A stretch of DNA of 63,573 nucleotides, counting the filler, from Reclinomonas americana ATCC 50394 (lineage: Eukaryota), in the NCBI GenBank assembly GCA_048213135.1. It is 17 parts of 17 records of this genome, joined end to end, with 100 filler letters (N's around TTAATTAATTAA, not from the genome) between each part and the next. Parts side by side here need not be neighbours in the genome. Positions count along the whole stretch, not along the records: positions 1 to 10,032 come from AFZH01019846.1; 16 more parts are not named here. One strand, given 5' to 3'. Within the stretch, counting starts at the first letter, position 1. Each line of letters starts with the position of its first letter. The notes under the pieces were generated by a model, which did not search any database, was not told the origin of the DNA, and worked only from the letters and a program-made list of their open reading frames with translations. A program made the translations under genes and the position numbers. Of this stretch, positions 3,914-12,493 are shown piece by piece.

Positions 3914-4621
3914 ATGGCTCAATGCACAGCACCACGAGAAGGCCATCGCTCATCTAGCGCGGCTGCTAGATGCCCAGCCTGCCGTGGCGGTTGGGGTCGC
4001 TCGCGCGGTTACGGGTCGTATTCTCCTCCGTCGTATTCGTATTCATCCTTCTCGTCGTCAGGGAGTAGCGGGTTCGGCAGGGGCAGTAGCGGCGGTTCCA
4101 GCCGAAGTGTGAAGCCGAAATGGTCGCGGGCCGGATCGACGATCCTGTACACACCCGCTGAGGTTCGGGCGCTCACGCCGATCCGGGAGAACGTAGAAAA
4201 GCAAGCTACTCTCGATCTTCGCGACGTCTTCCTCTGTCATGCCTGGGACGATCGCCAAGGCGCAGCCAAACAGCTGCACGATCTACTCGAGGCCGCGGGC
4301 GTGAAGGTCTGGTTCAGCGAGAAAGATGTCGGTCTCGGCGTGCCGTTGATGCGAGCGATTGATAAGGGACTGGCCAATTCGCGGGTGGGGATTGTGCTCG
4401 TTACCCCGGCGCTGTTGCGCCGTCTCCCGGCGGAAGGTATCGCTGACAAGGAGCTGTCGGCGTTACTTGCACGCGATCGGCTCGTACCCATCGTGCACGA
4501 AACCACGTACGAGGCTCTGCGCGATGTGAGCCCGTTGCTAGGTTCTCGAAGCGGATTGAGCACTGCTGAAGAGTCAATGACTGCGATAGCTGCCAAGCTC
4601 GCCGAGCTAGTTGCCGTATAG
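3914..4621 (+). CDS. TIR (TIR_2) domain protein with N-terminal Cys/His motif and Ser/Gly linker
   Basis: DVFLCHAWDD...GVKVWFSE...IDKGLANSRVGIVLVTP...KELSAL (catalytic-position Glu present); N-terminal C-x6-H-x8-C-x2-C. Confidence 0.9.
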   Translation: MAQCTAPREGHRSSSAAARCPACRGGWGRSRGYGSYSPPSYSYSSFSSSGSSGFGRGSSGGSSRSVKPKWSRAGSTILYTPAEVRALTPIRENVEKQATLDLRDVFLCHAWDDRQGAAKQLHDLLEAAGVKVWFSEKDVGLGVPLMRAIDKGLANSRVGIVLVTPALLRRLPAEGIADKELSALLARDRLVPIVHETTYEALRDVSPLLGSRSGLSTAEESMTAIAAKLAELVAV

Positions 4622-4854: not shown

Positions 4855-5892
4855 TTAGCGGCGCGCTGCCGTTTCCGGTAGCCGCATGCGCCCTTCGGCA
4901 TAGAACCGGTGAAGGTCGTCCCCGCGACGATAAATTGCCATGGCAATCTTCGCGTATGTGACCATGTGACCCGCGCAAGCGTCTCGTATCGCCGTGGAAT
5001 CGGTGGTGATCATGCGGCTCATCAACTTGTCCGCACGCTCCCTAGCCATGTCAGCGAGGGCTGGAACAGAAAAGTCTCTGTCATCCGATCCGAGTACGCC
5101 GTCCCTGTCTAAAATGCCACGGAGTTCGCGGTAACTATCCTGCATTTCTTGCTTATCGCCTTGGAATATTTCCACAAGTTCGTCGATCTGCTTCAGAGGC
5201 TCGGCCACGCCTTTCACCTCGATCTCGCCGGGGGAGGCATATTTTATTTTAGAAACCTGTAAAGGATAGTCGTCGCTAGAATCGGAAGATATATCCCTGA
5301 AGAAGCCCAGATAGCTTCCTCCGCCCTGCCAAGGGTATTTGGCTATACGATCACCAAGCGCATGTCCCAGAGGCCGCACGTATGATTTTAGGTCTGATAG
5401 ATATGAAAATAAAGCATAAAGATCTGCTAGCTTCGCGTAGAATCGCGAAAAATCTGAGGCTGACCACTTTCCATCGATCTTGTATTCGTGGCGAGTGAGG
5501 GATGTGAGAATTTCTCCACTGAAGGTTTCTGTGTGGTTCCTTGCGAAAAAGCCCTTCCCGGGCAATAAACTGGAATAGTCATCAGTTACAGCTTCAATTG
5601 GCTGCATAAGTACTTCGTCTTCAAGGTCATCCCAATCAAAAATGTATGGCGCCCCAACGCGTGGGTGCGTCATGACGAAATTGAGATCGACTTTTTGATC
5701 AAGGTAATCCTTGAAAATTTTGTCGGTAACTGCTTTTGCAATGTAGGGTTGCACAAAACCATTGACTTCACCTGGAACGGCGTAAGCGAGCAGGTGAGTG
5801 CCCTTCCGGTTCTGGAGGAGCGCCAAGATCGGCTCATCAAAGTGCACGAGAGTTTGAACGTACGCGGCACGGAGTCGGTTGCGGATTTTCAT
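4855..5892 (-). CDS. Hypothetical protein, DUF6575-like N-terminal domain
   Basis: Start MKIRNR at the ATGA overlap with the upstream gene; TLVHFDEPILAL...YL...VDL...LLPGKGFF resembles DUF6575 (from memory); C-terminal IKYASPG motif; AT-richer than host. Confidence 0.6.
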   Translation of the reverse strand: MKIRNRLRAAYVQTLVHFDEPILALLQNRKGTHLLAYAVPGEVNGFVQPYIAKAVTDKIFKDYLDQKVDLNFVMTHPRVGAPYIFDWDDLEDEVLMQPIEAVTDDYSSLLPGKGFFARNHTETFSGEILTSLTRHEYKIDGKWSASDFSRFYAKLADLYALFSYLSDLKSYVRPLGHALGDRIAKYPWQGGGSYLGFFRDISSDSSDDYPLQVSKIKYASPGEIEVKGVAEPLKQIDELVEIFQGDKQEMQDSYRELRGILDRDGVLGSDDRDFSVPALADMARERADKLMSRMITTDSTAIRDACAGHMVTYAKIAMAIYRRGDDLHRFYAEGRMRLPETAARR

Positions 5893-6293
5893 AGTATGCT
5901 CACGACATCTGTCACGGCCATGCCAGGGTCGAACCCGGCGGCCATCCAAAAACTGATGTGAGGCGAGTCAGGTCTGCCCTTGAAGCCAACCCCAGCTGCT
6001 GGATTGATTGTCATGATAGCACCATAAGGCTTATGCCGCAGAAGCCCGAGTGGCTCCGCGAAATCTCGCACGCGAGCTATCGCCCCGCTACCCCATGTCT
6101 CGTCATACTCGATAAGCGAGCACGCGGCCCAGATGCAGGGGTCAACCTTCTTTTTGGGGGTCTTCCCGAGCGCGTTGAAAGAGTGACAAAAAATTTCATC
6201 CACTTCAGGGCCGGCTATTAGCCTTACAAATATCCCTGATAAAGGAGTAGCTGATATCGGCGGGCATTGCTCAGGAAGAGGCTCTTTCGGCAA
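5889..6293 (-). CDS. Small hypothetical protein, possible ADP-ribosyltransferase-like fold
   Basis: LPEQCPP...IFVRLI...WAACSL...HISFW; TTG start; coupled to the downstream gene. Confidence 0.55.
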   Translation of the reverse strand: MPKEPLPEQCPPISATPLSGIFVRLIAGPEVDEIFCHSFNALGKTPKKKVDPCIWAACSLIEYDETWGSGAIARVRDFAEPLGLLRHKPYGAIMTINPAAGVGFKGRPDSPHISFWMAAGFDPGMAVTDVVSIL

Positions 6294-6467: not shown

Positions 6468-7130
6468 CTAAGCCGCTTCCCCAAGCACCTCACCAATCCG
6501 GTCGTCCCAACGCCGCACGACCGCCGTTTGGATGCTCTCGCGGGTGATCTTGATCCACTGACAGTGTCCGCCCACGCCAGCCATACCGGGCCCGTGGCCG
6601 GCATTCTGGCCTCGGATGCGGCGTTGAGCCTCCATCGTCTCTACGCCCGCCGACAGTATGTCAGTGGCCGGTTCCATGGCCTCCAGCAGGACGGCAAGCT
6701 CGGAGTTGTATGGCGCAATTGCGACCGGGCCGAGCCGGTGCAAAATCCAGGGTTCAACGTTTGTGTCGTGACTCGCAACAACATATGCCTCGGGCCGGTT
6801 CCGCGCGATGGAGAACCCCGCGACAAAGAGGTCAAAGTCGGCGCCGATCTGGCAGAATTGGAGCGTATCGACCTCGCGCTCGGAAACCTCTCGCGCAAGA
6901 TCCACAATGCCTTCGACAAGTTCGTCGAACGTCTCGAATTTGCGCCCGATCTCCGGGCCGAGCATATCCATCAGCAGTGTTGGGCCGCGAGAACACGCAA
7001 CCGCGTTGAGATGAGGATAGAGCTGCCCCTTGCTTGAGATTGCACCTAGCGTACCGTCGCCGAGGTAATGGGCGCCGTCACAAAAGACATGAATGGCATC
7101 GGTCTCAGTGATGATGTTCACGGCGGTCAT
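6468..7130 (-). CDS. Proteasome-beta/HslV-like Ntn-hydrolase-fold protein
   Basis: After Met removal: Thr1, Asp17, Lys33, Gly48; C-terminal GVGGHCQWIKIT strand; ATGA overlap with the tape-measure stop. Confidence 0.6.
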   Translation of the reverse strand: MTAVNIITETDAIHVFCDGAHYLGDGTLGAISSKGQLYPHLNAVACSRGPTLLMDMLGPEIGRKFETFDELVEGIVDLAREVSEREVDTLQFCQIGADFDLFVAGFSIARNRPEAYVVASHDTNVEPWILHRLGPVAIAPYNSELAVLLEAMEPATDILSAGVETMEAQRRIRGQNAGHGPGMAGVGGHCQWIKITRESIQTAVVRRWDDRIGEVLGEAA

Positions 7131-9460
7131 GTGTGAATTACTCCGTAAATGGCCTCTATTGGCCCTGTTCCAATCAACGCCGCCTGCAGCGCAGCCTTTG
7201 CTAATTGCTTGACGAGATTCTTGAGGACATCTTCGGCCTTGCCGCCCTCAATGATGATGTCGCTAAGTGCGTCTACGGCTGAATCTCCGAAGAACTTTGA
7301 AGCATCGTTCGCAGCCTTTTGGGCGTCCTCGAGCTCCTTCTTTTTAGTACGGAGCTGCTCGGAAAGCTGGATCTCTTTATTGAGCTTGCCCAGGATCTCT
7401 TCGCGGGTTTGTGCATCGAGGCGGTTGAGGTCGACTCCGGCTCGCGCGAGCTCCATCGCAGCGCGCTTCTCGGCATTAGATTTGCCGAAATTATCAATCT
7501 CTGCCTGCAGTACGAGGTTCTGACGGGCCACGCTGTCGGTGTAGCGGTTCAGGCGGTCTTCGGCGGTTTCGGACTCGCTTTTCCCGCCGCCTCCCTTGCC
7601 GCCGCCCTTCTGGGCTGCTTCAGCCGCCAGAATGGCCTTGGCGGCATTTTCAGCGGCAGCCCGCGATACCGGCGAGCCGCCTTCCATTGCGGCTTTCCAC
7701 AGTTCGGTGGTCTTCTCCTCGAGCTTCCTCTTGTCCTCATCCATCTGGGCAAGGCGCACCTTCCCCTGCAACTTCAGGGCCGCCACTACGGGATCGCGCG
7801 CCACTTCAGCGGCTGGATCCGGCAGCTTCCCCGTGTCCACGACGAAGCCGGAGCGGTTGAGCGCTGATTGCTCGTCCTGAAGCTTGCTGCTCGTAGCAAA
7901 TCCCTCAGCCGCCGCCCGCGTACTGATGAGAGCCCCCCGCACCGCCGCTAGCTGCGTGAGCATGTTGGCGATGGAGCCAAAGGCCCGGGCGAAACTGATA
8001 TCGGTTTCGCCCAGCCGCTTGAGCTCGTCCGCGGCAGCAAGGGCCGCCTTTTCGTTTCCCTCAAGCCCCTTGGTAACAAGGTCGATAGCGCGCCGTTTGT
8101 CGTCAGCGCTTACGCCAGCAGAACTGATCGTGCCGGCTGCCGCGGTCAGAGCGCTGCGCAGGGCGCGCTCCAACCCCTCGGCAGCTGCCTTATCCTCCTG
8201 AAGCTTCTTATTATAGCCGTCGGTGACGGCCTTGTTCATGCGATCGGACGTTTCAGCGACCTGATCGCCAACGCCCTTGATTGCGTCTTTGGCGTCATTC
8301 GCCGGAGGCCGTAGTGCCTGCAGCGCAGCCGCATAGCGATCAGTGGTTTCCTTGCCCTTGCCGGCCTCAGTCGCGAGATATGCAACCACCGCGGCCGTAC
8401 CAAGGATCGCCGCGCCGATAGGGCCGCCAACGAGCGCCAGAGCGCCGCGCAGGGCCGCCACGCTTGTCGCTGCCAGCTGAGCCCGCACGCCGAGTGCAGC
8501 CAGCCCTGCGGACGCCGCCGTAGACGCCGTGACGGCCGCGCCAATCTGCGCCACCATGGGCGCAAGGCCCTGCGCTACCAGCCGGCTCGCAATTACGGCA
8601 CCTACAGCCGCAGCGGCCGTGGCTACGCCATCAATATTCTTGGCTAGAAACTGAATTGAAGACGACGCTGCCGATGCGGCAATGCCCATCTGTTGGCTAT
8701 TTCCAACAAACTTCAGCGCCGCGTTCTGCAGCATGGTGAAGCTGTCGGCGATCGACGCGTTTGTCTTGGCAAAGGCCGCGCCAACTTCAGGCGCAGCATT
8801 GACGATCGCGCGAAATACGCGATCAGAGACCAGTTTGCCTTCGGCGCCCAGATCCTTCAGCTGCCCAACAGCAACACCGAACTCCTTGGCGATGGCCTGA
8901 GCCACGACCGGGGCGTTCTCAAGCAGCGACCGAAGCTCGTCGCCCTGCAACCGACCAGACCCAAGCGCCTGGCCCAACTGCACAAGCGTGGACTGTGTTT
9001 CTGCCGCAGACGCACCGGACACCTTCAGCGCCTTCGACACAGTTTCGGTCGCGAGGGCAATCTCGCCCTGCGTCGCGCCGAAATCCTTGCCGGTGCGGGT
9101 CAGACGTGCGTAAAGGTCAGCGACCTCAGCAAATCCCGTCCGCGACCGTGTAGCAATATCGGCGATCTCATTCGAGACTGCACCGGCCATCGCTTCACCG
9201 ACGCCGGCCGATTTAATCTTGTTCGTGGCCTCCTGCCAGGTATCAGCGAGCTTCTTCAGCTCATTCAGTACCGCGGCACCACCAACAATCTTAGCTAGTT
9301 TGTCGAAGGAGCCCGAGACATTGGACTCCATTTCGCTGGCGCGGGACTCAATGCTTTTAGAGATGCGATCAAATTGGTTGGACTGTCGTTTTAACGCGCG
9401 TTCAAAGCGATTTGCGGTCACGTCTAAGACGAGACTGAGTTTTTCTGCATCTACTGCCAT
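7127..9460 (-). CDS. Phage tail tape measure protein
   Basis: DLYARL...KALKVSGASAAETQSTLVQLGQALGSGRLQGDELRSLLENAP.VAQAIA tape-measure N-terminal domain; Ala-rich helical body with hydrophobic stretches; 777 aa. Confidence 0.92.
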   Translation of the reverse strand: MAVDAEKLSLVLDVTANRFERALKRQSNQFDRISKSIESRASEMESNVSGSFDKLAKIVGGAAVLNELKKLADTWQEATNKIKSAGVGEAMAGAVSNEIADIATRSRTGFAEVADLYARLTRTGKDFGATQGEIALATETVSKALKVSGASAAETQSTLVQLGQALGSGRLQGDELRSLLENAPVVAQAIAKEFGVAVGQLKDLGAEGKLVSDRVFRAIVNAAPEVGAAFAKTNASIADSFTMLQNAALKFVGNSQQMGIAASAASSSIQFLAKNIDGVATAAAAVGAVIASRLVAQGLAPMVAQIGAAVTASTAASAGLAALGVRAQLAATSVAALRGALALVGGPIGAAILGTAAVVAYLATEAGKGKETTDRYAAALQALRPPANDAKDAIKGVGDQVAETSDRMNKAVTDGYNKKLQEDKAAAEGLERALRSALTAAAGTISSAGVSADDKRRAIDLVTKGLEGNEKAALAAADELKRLGETDISFARAFGSIANMLTQLAAVRGALISTRAAAEGFATSSKLQDEQSALNRSGFVVDTGKLPDPAAEVARDPVVAALKLQGKVRLAQMDEDKRKLEEKTTELWKAAMEGGSPVSRAAAENAAKAILAAEAAQKGGGKGGGGKSESETAEDRLNRYTDSVARQNLVLQAEIDNFGKSNAEKRAAMELARAGVDLNRLDAQTREEILGKLNKEIQLSEQLRTKKKELEDAQKAANDASKFFGDSAVDALSDIIIEGGKAEDVLKNLVKQLAKAALQAALIGTGPIEAIYGVIHT

Positions 9461-9534
9461 AAAAATACCTTGCAGCGATGAGCAGAATCAACGAGCTGAT
9501 TAAGATCGATCGCTTTGTCAAAGTGGAAAAGAAA

Positions 9535-9972
9535 ATGTCGGAGAACGCGCAGGACGTCGTCGAGCTCGCGGCTCACATCGTGTCGGCCTACGTTGCAAAC
9601 AATAGCGTGCCGCAAAACGAGTTGGCCGCTTTGATCGCAAGTACGCATGCCGCGCTAGCCGGCCTCGGGTTGGCACCCGCACCTGCTCCTGAGGAAAAAG
9701 CCGTGCCTGCGGTCTCGATTAAAAAGTCGATTTCGCCAGACTATTTGATCTGCTTGGAGGACGGCAAAAAGTTCAAATCGCTTAAGCGGCATCTTCGCAC
9801 GGCGTATGACATGTCGCCCGATCAGTACCGCACCAAATGGGGCCTGCCGCCCGACTATCCGATGGTGGCGCCTGCTTACGCTGAGGCGCGCTCGCAGCTC
9901 GCTAAGCAGATGGGTTTAGGCCAGCAGCGTCGTAAACGGTGTTCCGACCGCACCTTCTTCGCCGCGGATTGA
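9535..9972 (+). CDS. mucR: MucR/Ros-family zinc-finger transcriptional regulator
   Basis: LAAHIVSAYVANNSV...PAVSIKKSISPDYLICLEDGKKFKSLKRHL...KWGLPPDYPMVAPAYA..RS.LAK.MGLG. Confidence 0.95.
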   Translation: MSENAQDVVELAAHIVSAYVANNSVPQNELAALIASTHAALAGLGLAPAPAPEEKAVPAVSIKKSISPDYLICLEDGKKFKSLKRHLRTAYDMSPDQYRTKWGLPPDYPMVAPAYAEARSQLAKQMGLGQQRRKRCSDRTFFAAD

Positions 9973-10032: not shown

Positions 10033-10132
10033 NNNNNNNNNNNNNNNNNNNNNNNNNNNNNNNNNNNNNNNNNNNNTTAATTAATTAANNNNNNNNNNNN
10101 NNNNNNNNNNNNNNNNNNNNNNNNNNNNNNNN
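10033..10132. other. Assembly spacer (first of 16: 10033, 15325, 18429, 20827, 25048, 28304, 30832, 32611, 35463, 39017, 42785, 45833, 49557, 53153, 60861, 62426; each 100 nt)
   Basis: 44 N + TTAATTAATTAA (stops in all six frames) + 44 N, identical each time. Confidence 0.99.
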
Positions 10133-11095
10133 ATACAGATCTTTAACTCGTTTGACCTCGTCGGATCCGGGGATAATTTCTACCAGTTGAATTAGGATTT
10201 TGCCTTCTTTGAATACTTTTGGCGGCTCAGATTCAAAATGCTTTATTAGGTTTAGCGCGAATTCCTCAGCAAACGACGGTCCAATCGGCGGAGGATTTGC
10301 TATCAACAATAACTCCTTGGCAATCTGACTTAAAGCTTGGCAGGGAAAATCGAATGTCAGTTTTGCTTCGCCATTATTTACGACGCGAACCCCAAATTCA
10401 CGACCGTCGAAGACGATATAACTGTTTGGTTCGAGTTCGACATTCCAGTACAAGCCACCCGCTGAGCTTGGGGAGCTTGCCAACCCCAGCTCCTCCATAA
10501 ACATCCTGTGCTCAAATTCGGGTGTCTGGCTCTCCTCATAATTAGGAACAACTTCTCCACTAAATGCAAAAGAAAAGTATTTTGAAATAGAATCCGCTTC
10601 CTTTCTCGATATCGCCGATATAAATTGCAATGTTCTTAATGAAAAAGATCCGGGCTGTCGAATTTCTCCAGCAAGTATTCTTGAATAAAGCCTTCTGAGA
10701 TCGTCAGATGTTTTATCTTCTGCGCTTCGTGAGAATGTATTTAGCCAATCGTCCTCAATTTCGCTCAATGCATCTGAAGGGCCGGGGTTGGTAGCGATTT
10801 CTTCCAGTGCCAATCGGCCAATTTCGGTGCGATTTTCAACCTTGCGGCTATCTTCTGTATTCTGAGTAATCGCGCGTTGCGAAACCTCAGCGACTGCGGT
10901 CACCTTGCCCGTATTGGCGTCGACCCGAGCTGTAAGGTTTTGGCCCACGGATAGTACAACTGCACTCACCGCCTTATCCAAATTCTTCAGCGTCTGCGGC
11001 ATGGGAGGCAGGCCAGGGAGCCGAACACCGAGCCACTCTGACAGCGCTTCGCGGATGGACGGAAGCGGTGGCTTGTCGTCGTCGCTCTTCGGCAT
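10133..11095 (-). CDS. DUF2806-family protein (3' end at the gap)
   Basis: ENRTEIGRLALEE...IEDDWLNTFSRSAEDKTSDDLRRLYSRILAGEIRQPGSFSLRTL; AT-rich. Confidence 0.85.
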
Positions 11096-11157
11096 ATTGT
11101 CCCCCGCAACCTCAGATGAGCAGAGGATAAGCTTGCAACCTCCACCGGCACAACAGA

Positions 11158-11267
11158 CGGAACAACGGAACACATCTAAAGATGTGTTCCGTTCCGTTCC
11201 GCCTGTCCCGGATGCCCAGAAATGCCGGAACGCCGGAACAAGACGGAACATGTTCCGCTATGTTCCG
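11158..11267. repeat. Iteron-like repeat cluster, putative replication origin
   Basis: Five CGGAAC and five GTTCCG copies; perfect 13-bp inverted repeat AACGGAACACATC-TAAA-GATGTGTTCCGTT (11164-11193); palindrome CGGAACATGTTCCG (11244-11257); abuts the helicase stop. Confidence 0.7.
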
Positions 11268-12493
11268 TCATCGCAGGCGCTAAATACGCCCGCCTCCTCA
11301 GTTGTCAGGCCGCCATCTAGAAGCGCTCGCCGAACTCGCTGAAAGCGAACCTTCAGGATATCAGGCTTGTCAGTGGGGTACTCGGCATAAAAGGCCGTGC
11401 GCCATTCTTCGACGGTCGCAGCACCAATCTTGCGTAAGCAGTGCATGGCGACGGCGTTGTGTCCCCTGAGTGTCGCCCCGAACGCCTTTGCCGCCTCCTT
11501 CGCGTCGTCCTGCACGATTATGGGCGCAGTCGTCGGGTTGCCCTCCTCGTCCTCGCCGACCGTTACCGACTCCATGCGGAAGGTAGTGACAACGCCGTCT
11601 TCGGCATCGTTGGCGCCATCGCATTCGAGGACAAAACAGCCGCCACCCTTCTTCTTCACCATGAAGCTGGCGTCGACCGCGCCGTCTAGGTCGATGGCGC
11701 CCTTACCACGCTCGCCGGACCATGCTGTGTGATGGATCACGGTGACATGTGTGCCGGTCTCTTTGAGCATCAGGTCGCAGTTCGCGACGAAGCGGCCCAT
11801 GTCCTTCGAAGCGTTCTGGTCCCCTGGCCCGAAGACACGCGTCAGAGTGTCGATGATGATCCAAACGCAGGCTTGTCCGCACTGGCGCTCGGCCTCGCGG
11901 ATAGCCGCAACGAGGGCTCTGGTGTCCACGTTCGCGCTGGTCATGTCGATGAAGCCGCCGAGCACTAACAGCGGTATCTTTCCGATGCCGTAACGCTTTC
12001 GGAATGCCGCCATCCGGCGCTCTGTGAGCTTCTTGCGCTCGGCCGCGATGTAGACAACGAAGCCCTGCCTGACCTTCCTGCCGTGCCAGTCCATGCCCGC
12101 CGCGACGTGGCAGGCTATGTCGGTCATGATGGCTGACTTGCCAGTACCGGGCAGGCCGCTGGCCATCGTGAACTCACCATCGCCGAGTACGCCCTTCACG
12201 AACGTCTTCTTGACCTGCGTCGTATCGATGTCGGCGAACCACGTCAGGTCGAAGCGGCCGGTACCGGCGGGGCGGTTGTCGTTGGCTGGAGTAGGTTGCC
12301 GCCGGGCAGCTCGGGCGGCCTTATCTTCGGCGTCCTTCGCCTCGAGCAGACGGGCGTTGGTCTTGCGCCAGACGGCGAGCCAAGGGTGCTTGGCAGGATC
12401 CGCGTCATCGGCGCAGACAATCAGTGGACCCGGGCGGTAAGGCGTGTCTGTGCGACGGTCGTCGTCCGTAAGCTCAGGCGCAGCTTCGGTCAT
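11258..12493 (-). CDS. AAA_25/RepA-like (SF4) replicative helicase
   Basis: Walker A GLPGTGKS, VVYIAAE, Walker B IIIDTL, VIHHTA..G..KGA. Confidence 0.9.
   Translation of the reverse strand: MTEAAPELTDDDRRTDTPYRPGPLIVCADDADPAKHPWLAVWRKTNARLLEAKDAEDKAARAARRQPTPANDNRPAGTGRFDLTWFADIDTTQVKKTFVKGVLGDGEFTMASGLPGTGKSAIMTDIACHVAAGMDWHGRKVRQGFVVYIAAERKKLTERRMAAFRKRYGIGKIPLLVLGGFIDMTSANVDTRALVAAIREAERQCGQACVWIIIDTLTRVFGPGDQNASKDMGRFVANCDLMLKETGTHVTVIHHTAWSGERGKGAIDLDGAVDASFMVKKKGGGCFVLECDGANDAEDGVVTTFRMESVTVGEDEEGNPTTAPIIVQDDAKEAAKAFGATLRGHNAVAMHCLRKIGAATVEEWRTAFYAEYPTDKPDILKVRFQRVRRALLDGGLTTEEAGVFSACDDGT

Follow-up and report, generated by a model that had tools for sequence, protein, structure and literature searches.

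A gene for a predicted proteasome-like hydrolase recurs behind tape measure genes in phage-like elements

Fuchs, Alva and Lupas described 22 new groups of proteasome homologs in 2021 (PMC8665760). Four of these groups, i.e. PPH, AAH, CPH and RPC, are given in the excerpted text of that paper as lacking a propeptide, spread by phages and prophages, found mainly in Proteobacteria and of unknown function (PMC8665760). According to the same excerpts, the PPH proteins have about 140 residues, lack helix 2 and occur in Caudovirales and prophages, and the AAH proteins occur in Alphaproteobacteria, Actinobacteria and many phage genomes (PMC8665760). Here we describe a gene for a predicted N-terminal nucleophile (Ntn) hydrolase of the proteasome type that starts on the stop codon of the gene for a tape measure protein (TMP). 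Both genes lie in a stretch of 63,573 nucleotides (the window, meaning the whole stretch that was analysed) from the assembly GCA_048213135.1 of Reclinomonas americana ATCC 50394.

TMP cleavage in lambda has been known since 1974. The lambda TMP, gpH, is cut near a glycine-rich C-terminal region into gpH* and gpHC, and a 2025 structural paper on Ur-lambda states, in its excerpted text, that the catalyst of this cleavage is unknown (PMC12617516). The same excerpts give gpK as required for lambda tail assembly and as not located in the virion (PMC12617516). Iyer and colleagues noted that tail clusters of the lambda/T1 type combine K (JAB plus NlpC/P60), the ubiquitin-like I, and J, and they predicted, in the part of the paper used here, that I is processed by K (PMC1779556). 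Among satellites, the EPIPs of Mycolicibacterium carry a TMP gene of their own, which is called unusual for satellites in the excerpted text of a 2025 preprint (PMC12822802).

A predicted proteasome-like hydrolase and its overlap with a tape measure gene

The two genes and their junction are arranged in the window as follows.

6468..7130 (-): hydrolase gene, 220 amino acids, predicted Ntn hydrolase of the proteasome-beta/HslV fold (sequence, AlphaFold2 model, Foldseek, conservation in 126 homologs)
7127..9460 (-): TMP gene, 777 amino acids (Pfam, PHROG and NCBIfam matches)
7127..7130 (-): ATGA overlap of the hydrolase start with the TMP stop (read from the sequence)
7141..7144 (-): GGAG within the end of the TMP gene, read from the sequence, a putative Shine-Dalgarno-like element

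The product of the hydrolase open reading frame (ORF) begins, by direct reading, with MTAVNIITETDAIHVFCDGAHYLGDGTLGAISSKG, i.e. with Met-Thr, and has no propeptide. The catalytic candidates are Thr2 (codon 7127-7125), Asp18 (7079-7077) and Lys34 (7031-7029), and the oxyanion-hole candidate is Gly49, which lies within Arg48-Gly49-Pro50 (6989-6981). Once the Met is removed they are numbered T1, D17, K33 and G48. A GVGG motif occupies residues 185-188 and is followed in the AlphaFold2 model by a strand at residues 189-195. A preliminary description of the locus had named these residues and the GVGG-strand motif, and had placed the hydrolase ATG on the stop of the upstream gene; the sequence and the model bear it out on both points, the ATG (7130-7128) overlapping the TGA (7129-7127). 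The GGAG (7144-7141) sits 10 nucleotides 5' of this ATG.

The upstream gene encodes a TMP. Its product matches Pfam TMP_3 (PF20155) at 3.4e-56, TIGR02675 at 2.9e-20 and 22 PHROG families of tape measure or tail proteins, the best of them at E 1.5e-80. A TMP_3 domain at its N-terminus is followed by hydrophobic segments in the middle and a coiled part at the C-terminus, and with this domain it combines the great length and the tail-module position of a TMP.

We modelled the hydrolase with AlphaFold2 using 22 close homologs, and obtained a mean pLDDT (predicted local distance difference test) of 90.9 and a pTM (predicted template modelling score) of 0.89. A Foldseek search of PDB gave at least 500 matches at E ≤ 0.001. 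All among the matches listed are 20S proteasome subunits; the best are 20S beta subunits with E 1e-9 and probability 1.0. VIA-align superposes the model on 20S beta subunits with Z 18.1 and a root mean square deviation of 2.7 A over 176 aligned residues, and on Anbu with Z 16.9, and it places residue 2 of the model on residue 1 of the mature catalytic 20S subunits and of Anbu. The ESM Atlas model has structural neighbours carrying PF00227 with TM (template modelling) scores of 0.71 and 0.68. In these four analyses the hydrolase shows the four-layer alpha-beta-beta-alpha sandwich, and both helix pairs are present in the model, H1/H2 at residues 51-90 (51-64 and 68-85/87-90) and H3/H4 at 143-169. 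Hence, by predicted fold and active site only, the hydrolase belongs to the proteasome-like Ntn superfamily (20S beta/HslV/Anbu), as the preliminary description had anticipated. The fold also matches 16 proteins of the BFVD viral library at E ≤ 0.001, a few of them annotated as proteasome or HslV-like, so the proteasome-like fold occurs in viruses.

Searches of Pfam, NCBIfam and PADLOC gave no named family for the hydrolase, and phmmer against PDB sequences gave chance matches only. The sole PHROG match is weak (phrog_13702, full-length, E 0.021) and is annotated as 'terminase large subunit'. We take this family as mislabelled, because the hydrolase gene sits close behind a terminase gene in the loci L009 and L060.

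An exhaustive HMMER search found 861 clusters of the family at E ≤ 0.001 and 289 at E ≤ 1e-10, with clusters formed at 50% identity. We drew a 126-row alignment from 150 listed representatives after dropping 25 that were partial or N-terminally extended. Its mean column identity is 23%, and the following positions stand out. At position 2, the nucleophile, 79 homologs have Thr, 46 have Ser and one has Pro; Asp18 is present in all 126, Lys34 in 125 and Gly49 in 124 of them. Exactly one residue precedes the nucleophile in all 126 homologs. Gly105, Ser107, Pro140, Gln169-Arg170 and Gly187 are near-invariant as well. In the 33 genomic copies that we annotated, Thr/Ser, Asp and Gly are kept in all, and Lys in all but one, which has Ile at the aligned column. 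The spacing of the catalytic residues is thus beyond chance, because it is kept in 125-126 of the 126 homologs and in 32-33 of the 33 genomic copies, and because the fold search maps the residues to the proteasome catalytic positions. The conservation of T1, D17 and K33, on which the preliminary description depended, therefore holds across the family.

Methionine aminopeptidase removes Met from Met-Thr and Met-Ser starts, and E. coli HslV is also without a long propeptide. One residue before the nucleophile and no propeptide therefore fit an Ntn hydrolase freed by this enzyme. From the known specificity of the enzyme, Thr1 would be freed by the methionine aminopeptidase of the host and not by propeptide autoprocessing.

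The family is sporadic: among 401 genomes sampled from the class of the nearest genome, 6 have it, and among 401 sampled from its order, 13. Two or three copies occur in some genomes, and several copies contain stops. In L010 (genome G001), L035 (G796), L036 (G650), L037 (G729) and L068 the copy is flagged with an internal stop or consists of two overlapping ORFs, so some members of the family are decaying where they sit; the catalytic residues are still present in the aligned part of these copies. The clusters of 10 homologs carried only the name 'hypothetical protein'. With four divergent members as queries, tblastn found no match in 50,697 deposited phage genomes. We also searched for fused or longer forms of the family and found none, a search that is itself weak evidence.

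Gene neighbourhoods and carrier elements

We annotated 33 copies of the gene, i.e. the window, 20 copies from genomes and the first IMG/VR hit, and 12 from further IMG/VR contigs found with three sub-alignments. They represent 30 lineages at 50% identity, out of a family with hundreds of clusters. For locus scans we used closer sub-alignments, since the 126-row alignment was too diverse; the first profile scan of genome contigs yielded 2 loci. Genes in the loci were called as longest ORFs. The neighbourhood count excludes L002 (a 46-residue fragment), L069 (a C-terminal fragment at a contig end) and partial matches in genomes G691 and G571.

A TMP-type gene lies directly 5' of the hydrolase gene in 19 of the 33 copies (11/21 in the first set and 8/12 in the second). 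The count becomes 20 if L066 is included, whose 813-residue upstream protein matches a TMP C-terminal profile with its C-terminus (2.1e-5). Counted by lineage, the adjacency is seen in 17-18 of 30. The upstream proteins are of several TMP types, namely TMP_3, TMP_2, PhageMin_Tail with VanY, and Tape_meas_lam_C, and the two genes overlap by 4 nucleotides in 13 of the 19 linked loci according to the ORF coordinates. The preliminary description had expected a recurrent link to TMP genes in mobile, satellite-like elements, and the neighbourhood survey agrees with it. None of the three outcomes that it had named as refuting, i.e. those on fold, on conserved residues and on association with TMP genes or satellites, was observed.

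Where no TMP gene is adjacent, genes related to lambda I or J are found in several cases. In L009 the order is terminase, hydrolase and a Lambda_tail_I-like protein (2.5e-5), and L064 has a homolog of this I-like protein in the order hydrolase, minor tail protein, NlpC/P60 protein, I-like protein. In L060 a protein resembling the gpJ N-terminus is encoded just 5' of the hydrolase gene, and in L072, a phage contig of 40.6 kb that also has an endolysin, the gene directly 5' of it encodes a gpJ-like protein of 1178 residues. The other copies without a TMP link lie at contig ends or among unnamed genes. When the genes 3' of the hydrolase gene were compared all against all, L009 was linked with L064 and L060 with L063, and no other link appeared. 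Every informative neighbourhood of the family is phage-like, and no AAA+ unfoldase, of the HslU type or other, is encoded beside the hydrolase gene in the window or the annotated loci. The hydrolase gene belongs to the late operon, at its tail-tip end, and stands usually after the TMP gene and otherwise beside genes like lambda I and J.

Two islands, L031 (genome G442) and L033 (G470), have two hydrolase copies 3.7-4.4 kb apart, one after a TMP gene and the other after genes that are unnamed or of the head type; a third copy in G442 lies 65 kb off. These double copies may be tandem or nested elements. The TMPs of L010, L033 and L036 have a VanY-type D-Ala-D-Ala carboxypeptidase domain in mid-protein, so these elements bring their own cell-wall enzyme within the tape measure protein.

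The C-terminal part of the window TMP (residues 560-777) is shared by 64 proteins, which differ in length after a conserved G-x-G-P. In 49 of them a further 111-177 residues follow, which include a glycine-rich stretch and a C-terminal domain. The other 15, including the TMPs of the window and of L001, end within 9-26 residues. The window TMP stops 10 residues after the motif and is without the glycine-rich C-terminal module. Among the short forms with visible context (window, L001 and L029) the hydrolase gene comes next in 3/3, and among the long ones (L078-L080) no hydrolase gene is found within 16-18 kb in 3/3, a small comparison of three against three among related loci. In the lineage of the window TMP the hydrolase gene stands where the TMP C-terminal module would be. 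This is not general, since seven linked TMPs of other lineages (L010, L036, L063, L065, L066, L067 and L071) retain the glycine-rich module.

Ten of the 14 IMG/VR contigs that carry the gene are 12-20 kb long. The carrier islands in genomes encode an integrase, a replication protein of the Prim-Pol/VapE, AAA_25 or DnaB type, portal, prohead protease and capsid proteins, a head-tail adaptor, head closure and tail completion proteins, small and large terminase, TMP and the hydrolase. Only L068 gave a match to a tail-tube family. No match to a sheath or baseplate family was seen in the annotated parts of the loci, in which many ORFs are unnamed. L064 and L072 are contigs resembling whole prophages. 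The gene content of the carriers is that of capsid-forming satellites, and from gene content alone we infer that they may be such satellites. In L001 (1535-3142) and L012 (2985-5270) a single ORF joins a prohead protease (S78) domain to a major capsid domain; the L012 ORF has 761 residues, with a Mu F-like domain ahead of the S78 and capsid domains.

In the window, the TMP/hydrolase module has regulatory and replication genes on one side (Ros/MucR, DUF2806 and AAA_25) and defence-type genes on the other (PD-T4-10_B-like and ThsB-like TIR).

9478..9972 (+): Ros/MucR-type transcriptional regulator (PF05443, 2.8e-51), divergent from the TMP gene
10085-11251: DUF2806 protein, flanking the module on the Ros/MucR side; a pair of N runs cuts the ORF end
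11258..12493 (-): AAA_25/primase-helicase-like replication protein (PF13481, 1.1e-32; phrog_906 DNA polymerase/primase, 7e-53)
5889-6293 (-): unnamed ORF of 134 amino acids that precedes the PD-T4-10_B-like gene and could be its partner gene
4855..5949 (-): PD-T4-10_B-like protein, defence-type cargo (PDLC04024, 8.6e-20), whose true start probably lies within the ORF as listed
3914..4621 (+): TIR-domain protein of the ThsB-like kind, also defence-type cargo (PDLC00424 ThsB1, 2.7e-123, full length; TIR_2, 4.7e-16)

The Ros/MucR regulator occupies the place of the tail chaperone genes of siphophages, and no chaperone genes are present. The PD-T4-10_B-like gene, the 134-residue ORF and the TIR gene form a block of defence-type cargo right behind the tail module. 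The lower G+C content reaches the start of the window, so the island may extend beyond it. Pairs of 44-base N runs, 12 bases apart, occur at 10033-10132 and in 15 further places, every few kb over the full length of the window; they look like masked stretches and not biology. Between 35000 and 47000 the strand asymmetry is very strong and variable: the GC skew is -0.30 at 37-39 kb and reaches +0.60 at 45-47 kb, with a parallel AT skew, and the G+C content falls to about 0.5 over the remaining length of the window. The first 35 kb are not like this.

Possible roles of the hydrolase

We tentatively propose, as quite possible, that the hydrolase may be a late-expressed tail-assembly peptidase, because its active site is intact and its gene is fixed between the TMP gene and I/J-like genes and coupled to the former. 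With the methionine aminopeptidase of the host exposing Thr1, the hydrolase would be made late, translationally coupled to the TMP gene, and would cut the TMP or another tail-initiator protein during assembly of the tail, or of a tail hijacked by a satellite. Its position and kind of role would be like those of the peptidase protein gpK of lambda. Seven of the linked TMPs keep a glycine-rich C-terminal module of the sort near which lambda gpH is cut. The predicted fold, the conserved catalytic residues, the lack of a propeptide, the gene linkage and the type of carrier come from the analysis itself; catalytic activity, substrate and timing we infer. A wider version of this proposal would make the family a dedicated TMP or tail-tip processing Thr-protease, the first enzyme identified as cutting TMPs, and would make the TMP plus protease a portable module by which tail-less satellites re-program helper tails. 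We consider this wider version rather unlikely. The roles suggested in the preliminary description, i.e. maturation of the TMP, degradation of helper or host defence proteins and delivery together with DNA, are likewise hypothetical.

Several observations weigh against a proteasome-type peptidase acting in tail assembly. On the side of the enzyme, PF00227 (Pfam Proteasome) is matched by none of the 126 homologs, the family profile found no proteasome among PDB sequences, and a profile-profile comparison (hhalign) with ten HslV proteins of related genomes was not significant (probability 3.5%, E 0.012), although its register puts T2, D18 and K34 on T1, D17 and K33 of HslV. The tie at the sequence level is thus not significant, and hence the assignment rests on predicted structure and residue conservation. 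As for the linkage, 13-14 of the 33 copies (about 40%) have no TMP gene directly upstream, and translational coupling is common in phage late operons and says little alone. The substrate side is affected too. The window TMP and 14 relatives have no lambda-like C-terminal piece to remove, and since the window TMP ends where the module of its relatives begins, a C-terminal trimming in the lambda style is weakened for this pair. A shared C-terminal motif was searched for in the linked TMPs and none was found. Finally, relatives of capsid, portal, terminase or integrase genes are found nowhere in the window, and the element that carries this copy may therefore be reduced or decayed. A complex prediction for the hydrolase with TMP residues 560-777, for which own alignments were not used, had a score of 0.00 (mark 0.34) and speaks neither for nor against the proposal.

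The carriers suggest another use of such an enzyme. Most of them are short integrase-bearing islands with head and connector genes and, apart from L068, no tail-tube match, and from this gene content they look like satellites that must exploit a helper. The protease of a satellite or prophage could serve as a weapon that degrades host defence proteins or proteins of a helper phage, e.g. helper TMP or tail proteins, favouring the version of the element. The four divergent members without a match in deposited phage genomes, and the defence-type genes that adjoin the module in the window, agree with such a use. We nevertheless regard it as unlikely, since the gene is translationally coupled inside the late structural operon and not placed among early or accessory genes, occurs also in the prophage-like contigs L064 and L072, is matched by no PADLOC model and has no known target. 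HslV-type proteins form six-fold rings, and the C-terminal module of the lambda TMP is the part that binds the hub; the hydrolase could be a tail-tip protein, possibly a ring, that replaces the missing TMP module, with catalysis secondary. The short TMPs of the window lineage and their 3/3 against 0/3 association with the hydrolase gene would fit, and so would the slot after the TMP gene, where lambda gpM and the distal tail proteins are encoded (compare the order in L064). That comparison is small and between related loci, however, seven linked TMPs keep the module, and Thr/Ser1, Asp17, Lys33 and the Gly47 equivalent are near-invariant at such a low mean column identity, which points to selection for catalysis. 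We find this structural role improbable.

If the protein is catalytic, its reaction may still not be proteolysis. Connectase is described in the excerpted text of PMC8665760 as a monomeric, sequence-specific protein ligase within the proteasome-like family, and the lack of a propeptide and of a neighbouring unfoldase ATPase suits a specific enzyme better than a machine for bulk degradation. A transpeptidase or ligase of the connectase kind, or an amidase acting on a non-protein amide, is however very improbable in our view: the model has both helix pairs and connectase is described as lacking the first (PMC8665760), catalytic 20S beta subunits and Anbu give the best structural matches, and no candidate ligation partner was seen. 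We give the least weight of all, close to none, to the gene being unrelated cargo, i.e. a proteasome-like gene of cellular function behind a TMP gene by chance. The ATGA overlap is weak evidence when taken alone, not every copy has an adjacent TMP gene, and the island in the window carries other cargo. Against chance, the adjacency recurs in more than half of the lineages and with several TMP families, the spread among the sampled genomes is sporadic as in mobile genes, and the informative neighbourhoods are all phage-like. The tail-assembly peptidase thus is the role that we favour, and with it a conserved protease gene with an intact active site behind TMP genes would be a concrete candidate for the open step of TMP cleavage.

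Comparison with known systems

The hydrolase shares with HslV, 20S beta, Anbu and BPH the alpha-beta-beta-alpha sandwich (Z 17-18) and the identical spacing of Thr/Ser1, Asp17 and Lys33, and its glycine at 48 lies one residue off Gly47. It is no HslV (ClpQ). No HslU is encoded beside the gene in the window or the annotated loci, and its length is not about 175 residues but some 45 more than the HslV proteins of related genomes, which have 173-177 residues and are encoded by a separate gene. The G-S-G-G loop of HslV before helix 3 is replaced, with a conserved Pro140 there, and the gene lies in phage tail modules instead of a heat-shock operon, without an HslU-type neighbour.

Like PPH, AAH, CPH and RPC of Fuchs, Alva and Lupas as they appear in the excerpts, the hydrolase has no propeptide and is carried by phage-like elements (PMC8665760). 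It is not a PPH, since it has 220 residues and both helices against the about 140 residues without helix 2 described for that group (PMC8665760). It may be an AAH or belong to another of the 22 groups. Our data would add a tail-module context to these phage-borne proteasome-like homologs.

In its position the hydrolase gene resembles that of gpK in lambda and T1, a peptidase gene between the TMP gene and the I and J genes, with I/J-like flanks in L009, L060, L064 and L072. The enzyme is a predicted Thr Ntn hydrolase, whereas gpK has metallo- and cysteine peptidases, so the likeness is one of position and presumed role only. The hydrolase has a proteasome-like predicted fold and no Pfam match to a JAB/MPN or NlpC/P60 domain. 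As L064 has both a hydrolase gene and an NlpC/P60 gene, the hydrolase is not simply a replacement of gpK.

Like the EPIPs and the capsid-forming PICIs, as the excerpts of the preprint present them, the carriers are integrated elements of small size that have genes for head, connector and packaging and would need borrowed tails (PMC12822802). Their hosts are Alphaproteobacteria and others and not Mycobacteriaceae, and the carriers here are taken as probable satellites from their gene content. The analysis points to alphaproteobacterial islands with head genes, TMP and hydrolase, with a tail-tube gene in only one of them, and such islands may be satellites of a kind only now being described.

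The words 'protease' and 'peptidase' each occur 0 times in PMC12822802, and neither 'tape' nor 'terminase' occurs in the text of PMC8665760. Our full-text literature searches, whose coverage leaves out most subscription journals, returned no paper on a pairing of a proteasome-like protein with a tape measure protein, and the related literature, judged from titles and abstracts, gave no description of it. The preliminary description had called a module of TMP and proteasome-like peptidase undescribed. This stands for the pairing, for which the searches gave no precedent; it does not extend to the enzyme, since proteasome homologs of phages appear already in the excerpted text of PMC8665760. The type of enzyme and its phage-borne members are thus already known, and what is new, as far as we have seen, is the fixed place behind the TMP gene, the type of carrier and the exchange with the TMP C-terminal module.

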